Part shown: positions 5,239 to 58,941 of the stretch, in pieces | Layout of the letters: each line of letters opens with the position of its first letter | Numbering within the stretch: position 1 is the stretch's first letter | Source: an uncultured Gammaproteobacteria bacterium | Lineage (GTDB): Bacteria > Patescibacteriota > Microgenomatia > UBA8517 > JACQJR01 | Direction: 5' to 3' | DNA length: 64,000 nucleotides | NCBI GenBank assembly: GCA_964442455.1 | Contig: CAYTZB010000004.1 | Location: 7,425 to 71,424, forward strand | The notes under the pieces: model-generated | Databases searched by the model: none | Told to the model about the DNA's origin: nothing | What the model saw: only the letters and a program-made list of their open reading frames with translations | Position numbers and translations under genes: made by a program

Positions 5239-5499
5239 ATGGGAGGAAAAGAAATTAAAGAACGCAATCAAGGAGTAACTCTGCCTCGGCTAACTGATGG
5301 ATGTAAGTACTCCAAAGGTGCTATTCAACTCGTAGAAGAAGCAATAGAAAGAGGAATTGATCCAACCCATGAAGTTGCACAAGCTCTAACTGAGGTAAGT
5401 ATTAATGGCAAAAAGACAATTACACGAAGACATCTTGGCGGATTATTAGAAGAAGTTACCAGAAGAATGCACTCGCTGCCGTTTATCAATCGAATTTAA
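5239..5499 (+). CDS. small hypothetical protein (86 aa), doubtful
   Basis: This is an ORF only, lying between two minus-strand genes and overlapping the recJ 3' end. No motif was recognised. Confidence 0.2.
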   Translation: MGGKEIKERNQGVTLPRLTDGCKYSKGAIQLVEEAIERGIDPTHEVAQALTEVSINGKKTITRRHLGGLLEEVTRRMHSLPFINRI

Positions 5500-7336
5500 T
5501 ATCCTTCAATTTCAACTGGACTTTTTTGTTTCCATTCCCACCTTCGCCAAGGCTGCTTCCTTCGCCGACCTGCGCTTCGCCGAAGGCTCCGGCGAGGCGA
5601 GAGTGGCTACGGAGGCCGAGTCGGCGGGCAGGCCACTCATCAATTTCAATCGTATACGCAATATCAACTGGTTTGTCTGGTGAAAGTTGTGAATAAAGCT
5701 CGCCCATTCCAAAACCGATAGCATTAAAAGTGATTAGTGATTGACCTCCGGCTCTGGAGAGCCTCCCACCGGGGCTTGAGCCCCTCTGGAGCGGAGCCTG
5801 GCTCGGAGAGTTATTAGTGATTAGTAATTTCAAGTGTTGGTTCTCTCTGCCCACAAGCCGTGCATCTTTAAACAAAACTCCTCGTGTTACAAACACCGGT
5901 CCAGGATTACCAACGCCAAAAGGGACAAACTTTGCAACTTCTTGTGCAAGTGCAAGGTTAACAACAGAGAGTGGAATTTCACACTCAATGCGAATTTTAG
6001 GCGTCAAGTGCTCATCGGTTAAATTTCCATCCGCATGATCTTTAAAAGCTTGTGAAAGTAATTCCAAATGTTGGGTCTTGACCGTAAATCCGGCAGCCAT
6101 AGCATGTCCCCCACCCTCAACCAAAAATTCACGAGCACGATCAAGAAGTTCAACAATATTAAATCCAGAAACCGAACGTGCCGAACCCCGAGAAAATTCC
6201 TCTCCTTTTGAGACAACAATTGCAGGTCTTCCAAATTCCTCAACAAGCCGAGAGGCAACGAGTCCCACAATCCCCTCATGATAACTCTCATGTGCGACAA
6301 AAATCAGCCCTGCCTGCGCAGGCAGGCCGCCATCGCTTTTTAACACCTGTTCTCTTGCATGAAACACACTATCCACCACCATTTGTTGGCGTGTTCTATT
6401 TGTTTCATTTAATTGAAATACCAACTCTCGTGCTTTGGTAGTACTTTTTGTACAAAGAAGCCGCAACGAACTAAGTGCATGCTCCAGTCGTCCTGCGGCA
6501 TTCAGTCGCGGTGCAAGCAGAAATCCAACTTCATATGTTCCAATCTCTTTTTGGTTTATCCCAGCAACTTGGCACAAAGCGACAATCCCCGCTCTGGTTG
6601 TTTTTTGCAAGACAGTCAATCCATGAAATACCAAAGAGCGGGCAGGACCAATGAGTGGTACCATATCGGCAACCGTTGCCAATGCCACAAGCCCCAACCA
6701 ATCATCCCAACGATCAATTTTCAATTTTAAATTTTCAATTTTCAATTCCCGCGCAAGTACGTATGCCACCCCAGCTCCGGAAATCGCGGTCGTATGTAAA
6801 ATTGCAAACGCTTTCGGTTTTGTTTTTCGTGGCAGGTGATGATCGGTAATAATGACATCAAGTCCCAGCTCCTTTGCAGTATCGACTTTCTCGTGCGCAA
6901 CAATACCGTTATCAACTGTAATAATAAGTCCAACACTCGAATCCTCTTTTTTTAACTGCTTCATCCGAGGAATATTCAAGCCATATCCTTCAGTTCTTCG
7001 CTCTGGAATAAAAGGCAAGGCATTAACACCGCTATAATAAAGTGCTTCCCATAAAATCGCTGCCCCGCAAATCCCATCCGCATCGTAATCTCCCCACACT
7101 ATTACTTTCTCACCAGTCTTTTTTGCTTTTTCTATTCTTTTAATTGCTTTTCTTAATTCTTTGGAGTCAATCCCAAAATCGCGAGCGGTCAGTTTGTCTG
7201 GATGTGTCGGGGCAAAAAATTCTTTCTCTTGGGCTTTGGTTTTAATCCCACGATTCTCAAGAAGAATTTTTATTATGCCCGTGGTACTTTTGCTACCTGT
7301 GGTACTCTTTTTACTTACTATTTCCCATTTTTTCAT
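5486..7336 (-). CDS. recJ: single-stranded-DNA-specific exonuclease RecJ (DHH family) with two in-frame GC-rich insertions near the C-terminus
   Basis: The DHH motif (VIITDHH) is present together with DHHA1-like and C-terminal OB regions. Length is 616 aa. Confidence 0.85.
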   Translation of the reverse strand: MKKWEIVSKKSTTGSKSTTGIIKILLENRGIKTKAQEKEFFAPTHPDKLTARDFGIDSKELRKAIKRIEKAKKTGEKVIVWGDYDADGICGAAILWEALYYSGVNALPFIPERRTEGYGLNIPRMKQLKKEDSSVGLIITVDNGIVAHEKVDTAKELGLDVIITDHHLPRKTKPKAFAILHTTAISGAGVAYVLARELKIENLKLKIDRWDDWLGLVALATVADMVPLIGPARSLVFHGLTVLQKTTRAGIVALCQVAGINQKEIGTYEVGFLLAPRLNAAGRLEHALSSLRLLCTKSTTKARELVFQLNETNRTRQQMVVDSVFHAREQVLKSDGGLPAQAGLIFVAHESYHEGIVGLVASRLVEEFGRPAIVVSKGEEFSRGSARSVSGFNIVELLDRAREFLVEGGGHAMAAGFTVKTQHLELLSQAFKDHADGNLTDEHLTPKIRIECEIPLSVVNLALAQEVAKFVPFGVGNPGPVFVTRGVLFKDARLVGRENQHLKLLITNNSPSQAPLQRGSSPGGRLSRAGGQSLITFNAIGFGMGELYSQLSPDKPVDIAYTIEIDEWPARRLGLRSHSRLAGAFGEAQVGEGSSLGEGGNGNKKVQLKLKDIKFD

Positions 7337-19900: not shown

Positions 19901-20318
19901 CGTCAAGGAGCAGGACAATCGCCCCACCCTTTCTGGTTGGGATCAAATAGGAAGAAAATCGTGATCGGAAAGGGTGGGGAGGAAAGTCCAGGCAGCAGGA
20001 AGCAGGGGACCCCGCGTAAGCGGGGACGGGTACCCTTCGACGTAGCTCAGGGTAGCCTGAGTAAAATCGAAGGCTAACCGCTAGTGGTCCTTCACTGAAA
20101 AGTGTAGGACACCAAACCTGAATTGACAGGGTTGGAGAGTCACAGAGACGATCATTAGTCTAAACCCTGACGGGTATGACCAATGAGTGAAACGCTGACA
20201 ATCCTCCCCGCTGCAACCTCCGAATGGTCCGCTATCAGGATGCTTCCCCGAGGACCAAAGTTGAGGGCACAGACAGATGATTGTCTAGAACAGAACCTGG
20301 CTTACTCGCTCCTTGACA
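19901..20318 (+). ncRNA. rnpB: RNase P RNA, bacterial type A
   Basis: It contains the conserved GGAGGAAAGTCCAGGC (P4 5' strand region) and ACAGAACCTGGCTTA (P4 3' strand). The 5' GTCAAGGAGC pairs perfectly with the 3' GCTCCTTGAC to form P1. The region is GC-rich relative to its flanks. Confidence 0.8.
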
Positions 20319-24087: not shown

Positions 24088-25083
24088 TTAAGCCTGCCTG
24101 CCGGCAGGCAGGGTATTCGTAAAAATCTTCCGAATAACTTCTTCAATTGGTGGTTCTTCAATCGTTACATCGGCAACGGAGAAATTTTGGAGAAGGCGTG
24201 CCGCCGCTCCCGGTGCCGCAGCGCGAGGAATACGAATTTCAACCCGAGGAAACTGATAGGAGATTACCTCACCTATTTCAGATAATTCTTGCATATTTGG
24301 TTCGTTCGTGAGCAGCGCGCGTATTACCTTCTCATTTACCCATCGCTCTACAATTTTTGCCAAACTTCCCTCAAAAATAAGTCTTCCCTCATTGATGATG
24401 CAGACACGACTTGCAAGTTTGGCAATATCACCCATATAGTGACTGGTCAAAAGCACCGTCGCTCCCGTCTTTTTATTGTAGGCAGTAATAAATTCCCTAA
24501 TATTCTGCGCTGCAACTACATCAAGTCCAATGGTGGGTTCATCCAAAAAAAGAATTCGAGGGCGGTGAAGCAGCGTTGCAACCAATTCCAGTCGCATGCG
24601 CTGACCGAGCGAGAGTTTGCGCACTGGGGTTGTAAGAAGTTGTTCTACCTCTAAAAGGGATACAAGCTCTTCTAATGTTTGCTTGAACTCAACTTTCGGG
24701 ATCTCGTAAATTGCACGGTTAAGAAGAAACGAATCCATCGCAGGCAACTCCCAGAGCAGTTGATTTTTTTGCCCCATCACGAGCGTTATTTTTTTTAAGA
24801 ATTCTTCCTCTCGTCTCCAGGGAATATGCCCTGCCACTCGTGCCTTCCCCGCGGTTGGATAAAGAACACCGGAGAGTATTTTCAGTGTTGTAGTTTTACC
24901 CGCACCATTTGGTCCAATAAATCCTACAAGCTCTCCTTCGTCAATTGTGAAGGAAATATCATCGACGGCTCGAACGATTTTCTTTTTGGGCTGAAAGAAT
25001 GAACTAACTACCCCTAGAAGTCCTGCTTCTCTTTGGGGAACAGAGAAGTGTTTCTTGAGATTCTCAATCTGAACCGCAACCAC
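24088..25083 (-). CDS. ABC transporter ATP-binding protein
   Basis: Walker A (GPNGAGKTT), the LSGGQ-like signature (LSLGQRMR) and Walker B (LFLDEPT) are present. Confidence 0.85.
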   Translation of the reverse strand: MVAVQIENLKKHFSVPQREAGLLGVVSSFFQPKKKIVRAVDDISFTIDEGELVGFIGPNGAGKTTTLKILSGVLYPTAGKARVAGHIPWRREEEFLKKITLVMGQKNQLLWELPAMDSFLLNRAIYEIPKVEFKQTLEELVSLLEVEQLLTTPVRKLSLGQRMRLELVATLLHRPRILFLDEPTIGLDVVAAQNIREFITAYNKKTGATVLLTSHYMGDIAKLASRVCIINEGRLIFEGSLAKIVERWVNEKVIRALLTNEPNMQELSEIGEVISYQFPRVEIRIPRAAAPGAAARLLQNFSVADVTIEEPPIEEVIRKIFTNTLPAGRQA

Positions 25084-28994: not shown

Positions 28995-29135
28995 AAATTC
29001 GAAGCACGAAGCACTAAATTCGAAACAAACTCAAAATTATAAATACAAAATAACAAAAAAGTTTAGAATTTGAAGCATTTGAATTTAAATATTGTTTAGA
29101 GTTTCGGATTTGAAATTTCGAATTTCCGAGCTTAC
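28995..29135. repeat. family-A AT-rich palindromic intergenic repeat, copy a (inverted relative to copies b-d)
   Basis: It carries aaattcgaaac...ccaaaatt...gaatttaaatattgtttag...atttcgaatttcc with cgaagcacgaagcac arms. Related copies lie at 35110, 38873 and 58784. Confidence 0.5.
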
Positions 29136-29140
29136 ATCGG

Positions 29141-30376: not shown

Positions 30377-30448
30377 TCGGGGTGCCCAGAATTGAACTGG
30401 GACCTTACGCACCCCATGCGCAAATACTAACCGTTATACTACACCCCG
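30377..30448 (-). tRNA. tRNA-Pro (anticodon GGG)
   Basis: A cloverleaf was folded manually. The acceptor stem is CGGGGTG/CACCCCG, the T-arm is CCCAG-TTCAATT-CTGGG and the anticodon stem is TGCGC/GCGTA with loop ATGGGGT. The CCA end is not encoded. Confidence 0.8.
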
Positions 30449-35109: not shown

Positions 35110-35286
35110 ATAATTAAAATTCGAAATTCTAATATCGAAATTCGAAACAAATCCAAAATTATAATGTTCTAAATTATAAGCAGAGCTTGTTTCTCGCTAA
35201 CGCTCAAAATAAACGTTTTATCCGCCAGATGGCGGATTGAATTTAAATATTGTTTAGGATTTCGTGCTTCGTGCTTCGAATTTATC
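35110..35286. repeat. family-A palindromic repeat, copy b, between rplM and rpsI; it has an embedded family-B-like segment plus an ATCCGCCAGATGGCGGAT hairpin, and overlaps the last ~10 codons of rplM
   Basis: The sequence similarity to the repeats at 28995, 38873 and 58784 is visible by eye. Confidence 0.45.
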
Positions 35287-37955: not shown

Positions 37956-38039
37956 AGATTGGCCTCCAATCTATGGAATTTCCAATTTCTGAAGGATTTC
38001 TTCCATTTGATATTTGATACTTGATACTTGATACTTTTC

Positions 38040-38872: not shown

Positions 38873-39001
38873 ATAACCTCCTTCGGAGGAAATCCGAAAT
38901 TCTAAATCCGAAATACGAAACGTTTCGAATCTTATATTTTTATAATTTGTTTCGGATTTCGATATTCGTGCTTCGAATTTCCAACTTTGCACACAAAGTT
39001 G
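38873..39001. repeat. family-A palindromic repeat, copy c, between rpmJ and rpsM, including a perfect 8-bp-stem hairpin CCAACTTTGCACACAAAGTTGG
   Basis: It is visibly similar to the copies at 28995, 35110 and 58784. Confidence 0.45.
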
Positions 39002-49789: not shown

Positions 49790-50631
49790 TGACTTTGCGC
49801 CCTTTCGGTGTTCTGCTCACTCGGCACTCTCTCTGCGTTCTGCTCTTTGCCTTCTTCATTCTCTTTATCCTCTTCCGAGAGCTTAATGGATGGGAGTTCT
49901 TCCGGATGAATCTCTTCTCCTCTTGTTACCAGTGGCGAGAATTTTTCATTTTTTCCGATTTTTTCTATAGAGAGAAGTCCCCCAGGATTTCCGGGAACAA
50001 GGCCAGAGAGTTTCACTTCCCCATCTTTGCCAATCTCAAGCACAGTAAGATTGCGTACGGTTGCTGTTTCTGCCCCCATTCTTCCTGCCATTTTCTTTCC
50101 TCTCAAGACGCGACCCGGGGTAGTTGTTGCACCAATCGAACCAGGGGCACGCTCACGGTCTGATTGTCCGTGGGTTCGTGGTCCCCCGGCAAAATGCCAT
50201 CTCTTGACAACTCCCGCAAACCCTTTTCCTTTGGAGATACCGGTTACTTTTACTAAATCGCCAGGGGAGAGCACATCCGAAGCTTTTATGATATCTCCTA
50301 TTTTTGGTTGTTGTTTGTTGGTTGTTGTTTGTTGGATTTTTACTTCTCTTAAGAATCTTGGGAGCTTTGTGTTTTTTCCAGTCTTGAGTTTTTGAAGATG
50401 CCCTCGCATTGGCTTTGTAATATTCTTAATTTTTCTTTCTTCAAATCCAAGTTGCAAAGCTTCATAACCGTCCTTTTCTTGCGTTTTTATTTGCGTCACC
50501 ACGACAGGTCCGGCCTGTATAATAGTGATGGGTACTCTTTTACCGTCCTCTGTCCAAGCCTGTATCATTCTCTTTTTTGTTGCTAAAATGGTATTAATCA
50601 TACCCTCTCCGGTTATCTCTAATTCCCACAA
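49786..50631 (-). CDS. rplC: 50S ribosomal protein L3 with an internal Q/T-rich tandem-repeat insertion and an acidic ~40-aa C-terminal tail (start likely 50601, MINTIL)
   Basis: The L3 family core is intact. The DNA repeat ggttgttgtttgtt occurs twice at 50306-50333. Confidence 0.9.
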   Translation of the reverse strand: MWELEITGEGMINTILATKKRMIQAWTEDGKRVPITIIQAGPVVVTQIKTQEKDGYEALQLGFEERKIKNITKPMRGHLQKLKTGKNTKLPRFLREVKIQQTTTNKQQPKIGDIIKASDVLSPGDLVKVTGISKGKGFAGVVKRWHFAGGPRTHGQSDRERAPGSIGATTTPGRVLRGKKMAGRMGAETATVRNLTVLEIGKDGEVKLSGLVPGNPGGLLSIEKIGKNEKFSPLVTRGEEIHPEELPSIKLSEEDKENEEGKEQNAERVPSEQNTERAQSQ

Positions 50632-58291: not shown

Positions 58292-58783
58292 TTAAGAAGC
58301 ACTAGCTTCCTGTATTACTGCTGCAGCTCTAGGCGCTCCCCCTCCCTCCGGGCCAGAGGTCCCTCCGGGCCGGCGGCCCTCACGTCGTGTCCCATATTGT
58401 GAACGGGAAGTCTTTCTTCCCACGACACCAGTGGTATCGAATTTCCCTCGTACAATATGATACTTAACCCCTGGAAGATCTCTTACACGACCGCCTCGAA
58501 CCAAAACTATCGAATGCTCTGCCAACTCGTGTCCTTCTCCTGGGATATAGGCAGTAACCTCTTGTTTATTCGAAAGTCGCACACGGGCAACTTTACGCAG
58601 CGCTGAATTCGGTTTCTTGGGGGTCATCGTGCGGACAGCCAATACCACTCCCCGTTTAAAGGGGCTCGGTAGTTGGGAAAACCGTCGCCGTCTCGCATTG
58701 AACCAACGCCGCAACGCCGTACTTCGGCTCTTTCCATGCACTTTTCTCCTTCCCTTTCTGGTGAGTTGATGAATCGTAGGCAT
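58292..58783 (-). CDS. rpsL: 30S ribosomal protein S12 with an N-terminal ~12-aa insertion and a GC-rich ~30-aa C-terminal tail
   Basis: The S12 core is present ([24 protein letters not shown]). The tail [24 protein letters not shown] is encoded by the direct repeat ccctccgggcc at 58321-58375. Confidence 0.95.
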
Positions 58784-58941
58784 AAATAATTAAATCCGAA
58801 ATTCGAATATCGAAATCCTAAACAAATTCCAAATTTTAAATTCAAATGATTGAAACAGTTTGAAATTTAGAAAATTTGAATTTAATTATTGTTTCGAATT
58901 TCGTGCTTAGAATTTCGAATTTCCAAAATTATATCACAATT
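58784..58941. repeat. family-A palindromic repeat, copy d, filling the rpoC-rpsL spacer
   Basis: It is visibly similar to the copies at 28995, 35110 and 38873, with inverted arms ccgaaattcgaatatcgaaat / atttcgaatttcg. Confidence 0.5.
58928..58936 (-). promoter_or_regulatory. candidate extended -10 promoter (TGaTATAAT on the minus strand) for the str operon, directly after the rpoC stop
   Basis: The motif is read from the reverse complement. No convincing -35 was found. Confidence 0.3.

Follow-up and report, generated by a model that had tools for sequence, protein, structure and literature searches.

In-frame palindromic mini-elements in protein genes are already known. The Rickettsia palindromic elements (RPEs) are reportedly selfish sequences that lie in frame in conserved protein genes, are translated, and are tolerated in surface regions of the proteins. 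The small dispersed repeats (SDRs) SDR4–6 of heterocystous cyanobacteria are said to be hairpin repeats of 21–27 nt with evidence of mobility. Reportedly, the SDRs have neither coding capacity nor an obvious transposase, and they are linked to nested arrangements and to tandem repeats of heptamers. The GC clusters and 'byp' elements of yeast mitochondria are short GC-rich palindromic mobile sequences in AT-rich genomes, coding regions included. Some of the repetitive extragenic palindromes (REPs) lie wholly inside open reading frames (ORFs), to which they add short peptides, often in genes of DNA replication and repair (PMC3733652). Here we report an analysis of a 64,000-nt stretch of contig CAYTZB010000004.1 (referred to as the window), which belongs to an uncultured bacterium of the Microgenomatia (Patescibacteriota). 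The recJ gene in the window contains two GC-rich inserts, and the inserts are likely to be small non-autonomous hairpin-forming repeat elements lodged in two surface loops of the RecJ OB domain. Compared with the mini-elements already known, the unusual features are the small size of the repeat unit (30 nt), the same internal loop across phyla and phage contigs, and the nesting of the units in each other.

According to Pfam, the product of the host gene has a DHH domain (residues 77–220; PF01368, E-value 1e-21), a DHHA1 domain (residues 346–433; PF02272, 8e-16) and a RecJ OB-fold domain from residue 450 (PF17768, 2e-22). The catalytic core of DHH and DHHA1 is followed by the OB-fold domain, as expected of RecJ. 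We scored 7,988 homologues; the top ones carry the source name RecJ, and the closest database relatives are the RecJ proteins of Microgenomates/Patescibacteria. The PF17768 match is broken into two stretches by both inserts, and D. radiodurans RecJ (5F54) matches as far as the insert-2 boundary. In 50-nt segments, the GC content of recJ peaks at 0.78 (5531–5647) and 0.74 (5734–5819), against a window mean of 0.44 (s.d. 0.086), and in the whole 64 kb a single further position exceeds these values. The GC contents of insert 1 and insert 2 are 72% and 73%, respectively, versus 42% in the remaining part of recJ. The initial annotation had recognized the elevated GC of insert 1, whereas its figure of about 60% was too low.

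The limits of the inserts were set by alignment to 11 RecJ orthologues together with orthologous DNA (Table 1). Both inserts are in frame and contain no stop codons. The limits previously drawn were 5538–5640 for insert 1 and 5745–5815 for insert 2. An insertion exists at each place, and that of insert 1 begins directly after the IDEW motif as had been described; its supposed terminal Asn-Gly, however, is native sequence, and the limits of both inserts are refined here. The peptides are linker-like, rich in Gly, Arg, Ser, Ala and Pro, and positioned in loops. The internal palindrome ggctctggagagcc and the two copies of ctctggag pointed out in the initial annotation are found in the sequence.

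Two related loci from Hainich groundwater (L003 and L004; 81–88% nucleotide identity) are without either insert, and the two inserts are the only large indels across about 8 kb of synteny. The inserts are absent from the closest insert-free orthologue (L003/L004, protein P0001) and from 10 further orthologues. In another relative, L002 (JACQJS010000028.1), exactly 30 nt, CTTGCCCGCCATAGCCTTGGCGAAGGTGGG, are located at site 1. Insert 2 is absent from L002, L003 and 11 of the 11 aligned orthologues. In an independent NCBI assembly (L001, GCA_016182755.1; 99.75% identity over 13.3 kb), both inserts are present, and insert 1 differs from the window copy by one substitution. These comparisons establish a lineage-specific insertion and a presence/absence polymorphism, in agreement with the proposal that recJ carries two GC-rich in-frame insertions.

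A chimeric assembly or contaminating reads could in principle produce such islands. GC-rich islands in an AT-rich metagenome-assembled genome (MAG) are a classic warning sign, and in a nearby part of recJ the L001 and window sequences differ in length by 14 nt and by several clustered substitutions. However, the presence of both inserts in the independent assembly L001 rules out an assembly artefact. In addition, the 30-nt form is located at site 1 in L002, L204, L341 and L339, which come from different studies, the inserts keep the reading frame, and the 30-nt unit is also present in chromosome-scale MAG assemblies and in isolate genomes. An artefact is thus extremely improbable.

The 18-mer AGCCTTGGCGAAGGTGGG, which is common to the window and L002, matched more than 120 metagenome contigs with GC contents of 0.32–0.72. 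In about 110 of 120 metagenome occurrences, the 18-mer is preceded by the same 12 nt, CYTGCCCRCCGW. Upstream, C is found at position −4 in 114 and G at position −2 in 112 of the 120 occurrences, and the conservation ends sharply at −13 and +1. The conserved 12 nt and the sharp ends indicate a discrete 30-nt unit. The layout of the unit is 5'-CYTG / 6-nt stem / GWAGCCTTGGCGAA / 6-nt stem-3'.

Read against this layout, insert 1 is resolved into three nested copies of the unit (30 + 30 + 36 nt), in which unit A encloses unit B, and unit B encloses unit C. The three units carry different stems, and every nesting step adds a multiple of three bases. After computational excision, units A, B and C score 37.1, 8.9 and 5.4 bits, respectively, with a profile made from other loci, and the maxima of 1000 shuffles, 5.2 bits for B and 3.5 bits for C, are both below the real scores. 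The 3' half of unit A is the only significant nhmmer match in the window; it is also the top covariance-model match in the window, at a marginal 15.3 bits (E 0.17). The loop variant of unit B, AGCCTCGGCGAA, is also observed in L017, L100 and L082. Nesting at CCGW^AGCC (after position 12) is found in L042, L098, L082, L109, L083, L063 and L226 as well, and nesting after AGCC is found in four instances in L095. Unit C is the weakest of the three assignments in insert 1.

The inserts might instead have grown in situ, through local slippage or tandem duplication of short GC-rich motifs and with no imported element. The motif GGCGAAGG is present three times in insert 1, and three segments containing GGCGAAG are spaced by about 18 nt. 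Heptamer arrays, which point to slippage, occur commonly in this genome and on both sides of insert 2, of which no relative was found elsewhere. However, no tandem array was detected in 5400–5950 by Tandem Repeats Finder, the arrangement is nested (5' halves, then 3' halves) and not tandem, and the stems of the three units differ. Hundreds of unrelated contigs contain an element identical to the outer unit, and for unit A in-situ growth is refuted. As an account of the inserts, in-situ growth appears improbable. The initial annotation had proposed a search for other copies of the GC-rich units. No second copy of either insert was found in the window or in the first related loci by blastn-short and a repeat search, whereas the insert-1 unit was found at other loci. 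Insert-free alleles exist, copies of the unit exist outside the window, and the mobile-repeat origin is strongly supported for insert 1.

The unit folds into a 26-nt hairpin with a covarying lower stem, a 3 × 3 internal loop of GWA opposite GAA, a 3-bp upper helix (GCC/GGC) and a UU cap. Covariation was tested using 71 distinct viral units, whose four outer stem pairs had not been constrained by the search pattern. Columns 5–10 and 25–30 pair in 93.4% of the cells versus 84.1% in shuffles, and 72 double-change cells are observed versus 25. The covariation score is 0.255 versus 0.088, a value reached by 0 of 500 shuffles. When the partner was slid by 1–3 columns, pairing fell to 26–56%. The stem variants include CCCACC/GGTGGG, TCCTCC/GGAGGA, TCCCCC/GGGGGA, CGTGCC/GGCACG, TCAGCC/GGCTGA and ACCGCC/GGCGGT. 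At the top inner pair of 335 copies, the sole variant is the compensatory change of C-G to T-A (10 cases, with no single mismatches). The GWA/GAA internal loop is the invariant part of the unit. G:T wobbles are common on one strand only; in 66 of 120 occurrences, CCCGCC is combined with GGTGGG, so that this strand has a G:T wobble where the opposite strand has a C:A mismatch. This strand-specific wobble indicates that the folded form is one particular single strand, DNA or RNA. Over the inserts and 20 unit-bearing loci, Rfam 15 gave no match, tRNAs excepted, and no description of the unit was found in the literature searched by DNA strings, peptide strings and topic. Two other classes of insertion were considered and ruled out. 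A self-splicing intron is ruled out by the lack of a match to any Rfam intron family, and an intein by the lengths of the inserts (63 and 96 nt), by their low-complexity peptides, and by the lack of Cys/Ser...His-Asn boundaries.

A degenerate 28-nt pattern matched more than 120 species genomes, and the matches listed cover at least 8 phyla. They include many classes of Patescibacteria, Acidobacteriota, Verrucomicrobiota, the PVC group, Kiritimatiellae, Planctomycetota, Bacteroidota, Alpha- and Gammaproteobacteria, Rickettsiales, Cyanobacteriota (MAG L180) and Acidimicrobiia. Geomonas paludis and Chryseosolibacter histidini (Bacteroidota) are isolates with the unit. A looser 18-nt core was found in 93 IMG/VR viral contigs, and cultured-phage and plasmid collections gave no match to the unit. 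In the viral loci L245–L337, the units frequently have GGAGGA or GGAGGG as their 3' stem, a Shine–Dalgarno-like sequence. An ORF of at least 80 residues starts within 12 nt after 10 of 98 phage-contig units (a raw count), and judging from these sequences some phage-contig units may sequester a ribosome-binding site. At two loci (L054, 102–131; L112, about 11475), the unit fills nearly all of a 37-nt spacer between tRNA genes, antisense to both genes. The 12.7-kb contig L095 carries four identical nested double units (1861, 4853, 7942 and 9041) at a spacing of about 3 kb, and a fifth, single unit at 136. Judging from this spacing, the element may be part of a gene block that is repeated in tandem.

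The unit is similar in form to REP/GTAG-REP and REPIN-RAYT sequences, which are also GC-rich hairpins of 20–40 nt with complementary stem changes and frequent G:T pairs (PMC3733652, PMC3116915). Like REPs, it is a short covarying palindrome that occurs singly or in groups, mostly in intergenic regions and sometimes inside ORFs, has no coding capacity, and contains a GTAG/GWAG motif. In GTAG-tagged REPs this motif is an unpaired terminal tag, whereas the GWAG of the unit is located inside the internal loop of the hairpin, and the unpaired tail is CYTG. REPs are limited to a species or genus, whereas the loop sequence of the unit is common to many phyla and to phage contigs. Unlike REPINs, the units nest in each other and do not form head-to-head dimers, and their copy number is low here, with one compound copy in 64 kb. 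Neither a cognate RAYT nor any other cognate gene was found within 3 kb of 309 loci.

The unit shares with RPEs the in-frame residence in genes, which is a likeness of behaviour and not of membership. RPE-1 is about 100–150 bp long and confined to Rickettsia, whereas the unit is 30 nt long, occurs in many phyla and nests in itself. SDRs have been described within cyanobacteria, whereas the 30-nt unit extends from Patescibacteria to Proteobacteria; the two are set apart by description only. In the case of yeast byp elements, which are organellar and eukaryotic, the insertion is skipped by translational bypassing, whereas the inserts in recJ keep the frame and have no pair of take-off and landing codons. 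The MITEs of bacteria (miniature inverted-repeat transposable elements), such as Correia, Nezha and ERIC, are likewise non-autonomous, foldable and sometimes in frame in genes (Delihas 2008, PMC2229807). MITEs, however, are at least 100 bp long, with terminal inverted repeats from a parent insertion sequence (IS) and a target-site duplication, whereas the unit is 30 nt long and has no duplication. No parent element of the unit was found among the ORFs within 3 kb of the 309 loci, which also separates it from MITEs.

The empty site 1 of L003 and the filled site 1 of L002 differ by exactly 30 nt. This is the one site with an empty allele, and it has no target-site duplication. Where units are located within heptamer arrays, the array stays in phase; no base is added in L051 and L070, and in L011, L031 and L072 there is one extra base or substitution at the point where the unit interrupts the array. 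Copies in the same genome tend to share a stem variant (two of two in L265 and in L300, three of four in one viral genome, and four of four in L095), which fits proliferation within genomes. We also clustered the 6,553 ORFs within 3 kb of units at the 309 loci. No protein family recurs at more than 12 of these loci, and the leading neighbour clusters consist of structural proteins of phages or of GC-rich ORFs that are spurious.

On contigs with less than 50% GC, 37 of 84 units are located in ORFs (13 sense and 24 antisense) and 47 are intergenic. The intergenic units have no fixed relation to the adjoining genes, and both orientations occur in ORFs and in spacers. The unit is open in five of six frames, and a stop occurs in only one sense frame, when W is T. 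With a length of 30 nt and five open frames, copies that enter tolerant protein loops can survive as 10-residue additions. On contigs with less than 56% GC, 48 units lie within ORFs of at least 200 residues, and all five open frames are used. The sense-frame peptides are LARRSLGEGG, CPPKPWRRW and LPAEALAKAG, and the antisense-frame peptides are HLRQGYGGQA, PAFAKASAGK and PPSPRLRRAS. All seven hosts tested with Pfam are genuine enzymes (a PIF1-type helicase, TsaD, a glucose/sorbosone dehydrogenase, topoisomerase I, a valyl-tRNA synthetase, a GT1 glycosyltransferase and a PEP-utilising PPDK), and in most of them the unit falls within the span of the domain.

The hairpins could also be kept in recJ for a selected function, as an mRNA structure that acts on translation or stability, or as a flexible Gly/Arg-rich loop that alters the binding of DNA or partners by the OB fold. 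Stem covariation together with strand-specific G:U pairs fits a structure at the RNA level, the two RecJ loops are occupied repeatedly in Microgenomates, and the 3' stem on viral contigs is often GGAGG-like. REPs inside genes are often located in those for the replication and repair of DNA (Di Nocera et al. 2013, PMC3733652). On the other hand, the closest relatives manage without the inserts, and the covariation is equally expected of a single-stranded DNA transposition intermediate. The units lie in both orientations with respect to host genes for unrelated enzymes and are also present in spacers, where they bear no constant relation to the ends of genes, and the peptides vary with the reading frame. 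We consider a selected function to be unlikely.

Three short palindromes, with AATNACT heptamers on either side, make up insert 2. Matches similar to GTGATTAGTGATT are enriched in the window (7 versus 1.6 expected), and three of them are located at 5809–5829. Heptamers of the type GTGATTA/GTGATTG also flank the 30-nt unit in the metagenome locus L011. The insert-2 seed AGAGGGGCTCAAGCCCCGGT had no exact match in species genomes, and three seeds of 18–19 nt gave only one chance match, in a coding gene, among viral contigs. No match was found by blastn-short against 1.6 Mb of unit-bearing loci, and the peptides of five frames found nothing at E-values up to 10 among 5.8 billion proteins. Because of its GC-rich palindromes, its heptamer flanks and its recurrently occupied loop, insert 2 is by analogy probably the same kind of event, with another hairpin family.

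In the initial annotation, the direct repeat ACTAATCACT was taken for a target-site duplication of 10–12 bp, which would make insert 2 a MITE-like element. The repeat is certainly present, at 5816–5825 and 5729–5738, and its exact 10-nt copies bracket the GC-rich core. An element of 77 nt with a 10-nt duplication gives 87 nt, a multiple of three, and the ends show a weak complementarity (CTCCG...CGGAG). However, the codon alignment puts 63 nt between N509 and G531, and both repeat copies (LITNN and SLITF) align to native residues, LQLTAN and GLQTTAIN on the two sides of the junction, in the insert-free orthologue. When 77 + 10 nt are removed, the remaining loop is shorter than in any of 119 orthologues. 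Moreover, the repeat is sequence of heptamer arrays, which are common in this genome, the related 30-nt unit inserts without duplication, and a second copy of such an element was not found in the searches made. The duplication reading is unlikely, and a MITE-like origin of insert 2 has a low probability.

A survey of 119 RecJ orthologues showed inserts at the W^NG boundary of site 1 in several distinct clades, with empty sites in between. The canonical unit is located there in P0047, P0069, P0096 and P0111 and in a Levybacteria genome (L204), and in P0050 (PARQSNAQAFAGG), P0074, P0027 and P0067 the stem is the same and the upper part differs. The DNA junction is identical in these cases, with TGG before and AATGG after the unit. 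This recurrence could result from repeated insertion filtered by tolerance, from an old insertion with precise losses (the 30 nt are flanked by a microhomology of GG), or from exchange of recJ segments. The insert-2 loop contains other GC-rich hairpin clusters in P0015, P0033, P0050 and P0096; those of P0033, P0050 and P0096, for which the DNA was compared, all start with CCTGAA after CAT. Smaller loop inserts in RecJ are LPAGR and LPAQAG, encoded by CCTGCC...GGCAGG palindromes, and GFGGQ and LRQGYG, encoded by the antisense unit. The palindrome at 6309–6326 is of this small kind, and its covariance-model score is weak (8.7 bits, E about 8). In other Microgenomates (L339, which holds the recJ of P0050, L340 and L341), the RecJ genes have up to four separate small GC-rich inserts. 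Their site-2 inserts share a different repeat, CCTGAACGAAGTGAAGGATCT...GATTCTTCG (PERSEGS...DSS), which in L339 contains a nested insertion.

The AlphaFold2 model of the insert-free P0001 has a predicted local distance difference test score (pLDDT) of 94.6 and a predicted template-modelling score (pTM) of 0.92. The model of the insert-bearing RecJ has a pLDDT of 66 overall and less than 50 in the OB domain, where it is unreliable. In the P0001 model, site 1 is the two-residue turn N541-G542 between the strands 529–540 and 543–555. Site 2 is N502^G503, in the loop 501–507 between the strands 494–500 and 508–513. The LPAQA mini-insert belongs to a lower-confidence loop near residues 331–337. According to the model, all three sites are surface turns that are likely to tolerate extra residues.

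We return to the reading in which the inserts are small hairpin-forming repeat elements. In insert 1, unit A would have entered between the codons for Trp and Asn-Gly, unit B would have entered the internal loop of A, and unit C would then have entered that of B. The units may be selfish DNA that is copied via a single-stranded hairpin intermediate and mobilised in trans, and an enzyme of the HUH/RAYT or IS200 type is the obvious candidate. By analogy, the nearest mechanistic model would be HUH processing (RAYT or IS200/IS605-type) of REP-like hairpins. The substrates of HUH processing are single-stranded hairpins, and no duplication results from it. The inserts are presumably translated, with RecJ still functional. 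A wider proposal is that the 30-nt hairpin is an undescribed gene-less mobile element of most bacterial phyla and of phages, which enters its own loop and coding genes without target duplication and is spread by an enzyme of host or phage that is widely conserved and recognises the GWA/GAA loop. This proposal is tentative and, at present, rather doubtful.

Several points weigh against the reading of the inserts as mobile elements. No mobilising enzyme was found within 3 kb of the 309 loci, the flanks have no target motif beyond a weak G/C before the unit, and there is neither a strong orientation bias nor a terminator-like placement. For these reasons, the word 'mobile' is drawn from comparative evidence alone. 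The recurrence at W^NG does not sit easily with the absence of a target motif. Unit C is degenerate, with 4 of 7 stem pairs and a score of 5.4 bits. No search gave a relative of insert 2, and its kinship to hairpin elements is by analogy only. The whole-insert DNA foldings are no better than shuffled sequences (z −1.5 and −1.6), and none of the four DNA folding z values (−1.5, −1.6, −1.9 and −0.65) is significant. The 64-kb window holds a single compound copy of the unit, and thus no recent burst is demonstrable for this genome.

Table 1. Positions in the window of recJ, its inserts and the repeat units assigned to them
Feature	Positions	Strand	Remarks
recJ coding sequence (host gene)	5486..7336	minus	From ORF list; 616 residues
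Insert 1	5537..5632	minus	96 nt; residues 569–600 (PARR...SLGEGG), between W568 and N601-G602
Unit A, 5' half	5621..5632	minus	CCTG CCCGCC GA; matches the conserved 12 nt upstream of the 18-mer
Unit B, 5' part	5605..5620	minus	CTCG GCCTCC GTAGCC; B read as inserted after position 12 of A
Unit C (putative)	5569..5604	minus	36 nt, degenerate; ACT CTCG CCTCGCC GG AGCCTTCGGCGAA GCGCAGG; after AGCC of B
Unit B, 3' part	5555..5568	minus	TCGGCGAA GGAAGC
Unit A, 3' half	5537..5554	minus	AGCCTTGGCGAA GGTGGG; the exact 18-mer common to L002 and more than 120 metagenome contigs
Insert 2	5747..5809 (±3 nt)	minus	63 nt; residues 510–530 (SPSQ...SRAG; SPSQAPLQRGSSPGGRLSRAG)
Three heptamers, AATTACT AATCACT AATAACT	5809..5829	minus	Upstream of insert 2
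Palindrome GAGCC-A-GGCTC	5794..5804	minus	Inside insert 2; read from the sequence
Palindrome GGGGC-TCAA-GCCCC	5771..5784	minus	Inside insert 2; the only stem kept in the centroid fold
Palindrome GGCTC-TCCA-GAGCC	5750..5763	minus	Inside insert 2; read from the sequence
Two AATCACT heptamers	5729..5742	minus	Downstream of insert 2
18-nt perfect palindrome CCTGCCTGCGCAGGCAGG, mini-insert LPAQA(G)	6309..6326	minus	In the window, P0001 and P0004; most orthologues without it

Other repeats were observed in the window. A perfect 20-nt palindrome, CCTGCCTGCCGGCAGGCAGG (24093–24112), encodes the final residues LPAGRQA of an ABC-transporter ATPase (24088–25083, minus strand); it is of the same type as the palindrome at 6309–6326 in recJ and that of the metagenome locus L106. 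Heptamer tandem arrays are frequent according to Tandem Repeats Finder (6714–6747, 35117–35147, 38007–38036, 38889–38920 and 50304–50335). The array at 6714–6747 is located in recJ (TCAATTT, 4.9 copies) and encodes KIENLKLKI, in a region of variable length among orthologues. A family of AT-rich palindromic intergenic repeats with heptamers of the AAATTCG/TTCGTGC type is present at 28995–29138, 35117–35283, 38890–38980 and 58792–58935, and the copy at 35117–35283 has a central GC hairpin, TCCGCCAGATGGCGGA (35221–35236). The rpsL gene (58292–58783, minus strand) encodes ribosomal protein S12 with a GC-rich 3' extension (up to 0.84; 58292–58400). The S12 equivalog model stops at residue 135 and leaves 28 extra residues, whose DNA contains TCCCTCCGGGCC twice. 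The S12 tail has no significant similarity to insert 2, as 70 of 1000 shuffles score as well. A GC-rich stretch at 19963–20062 contains GGAAAGTCC and is RNase P RNA-like by eye. Over the window, Rfam gave no family at gathering score except one tRNA (30377–30448). Between L001 and the window, the cluster of substitutions and the 14-nt length difference in recJ are located at 6138–6251. This difference shifts the frame of recJ in L001, where the annotation has two ORFs (443 and 204 residues); the cause may be variation between strains, a patch of recombination or an error of assembly.

If the wider proposal is true, no mobile DNA known in bacteria would be smaller or more widely distributed than the 30-nt hairpin, and proteins of reduced genomes would have in it a general source of loop insertions of 10 residues. 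If the unit is mobile, gene-less and pan-bacterial, its invariant internal loop must be recognised by an enzyme that is widely shared, and finding such an enzyme would explain how minimal selfish DNA crosses phylum boundaries. The proposal would also account for a class of low-complexity, GC-rich insertions that puzzle the observer in patescibacterial proteins and in those of other uncultured lineages. Such insertions distort alignments, domain calls and structure predictions, as in the case of RecJ (pLDDT of 66 with the inserts versus 95 without). For annotators, the peptides SLGEGG, LRQGYGGQ, FAKASAGK and LPAEALAKAG would be signatures of element-derived segments. In RecJ itself, the sequence comparisons mark two loops of the OB domain as apparently tolerating insertions of 10–32 residues.

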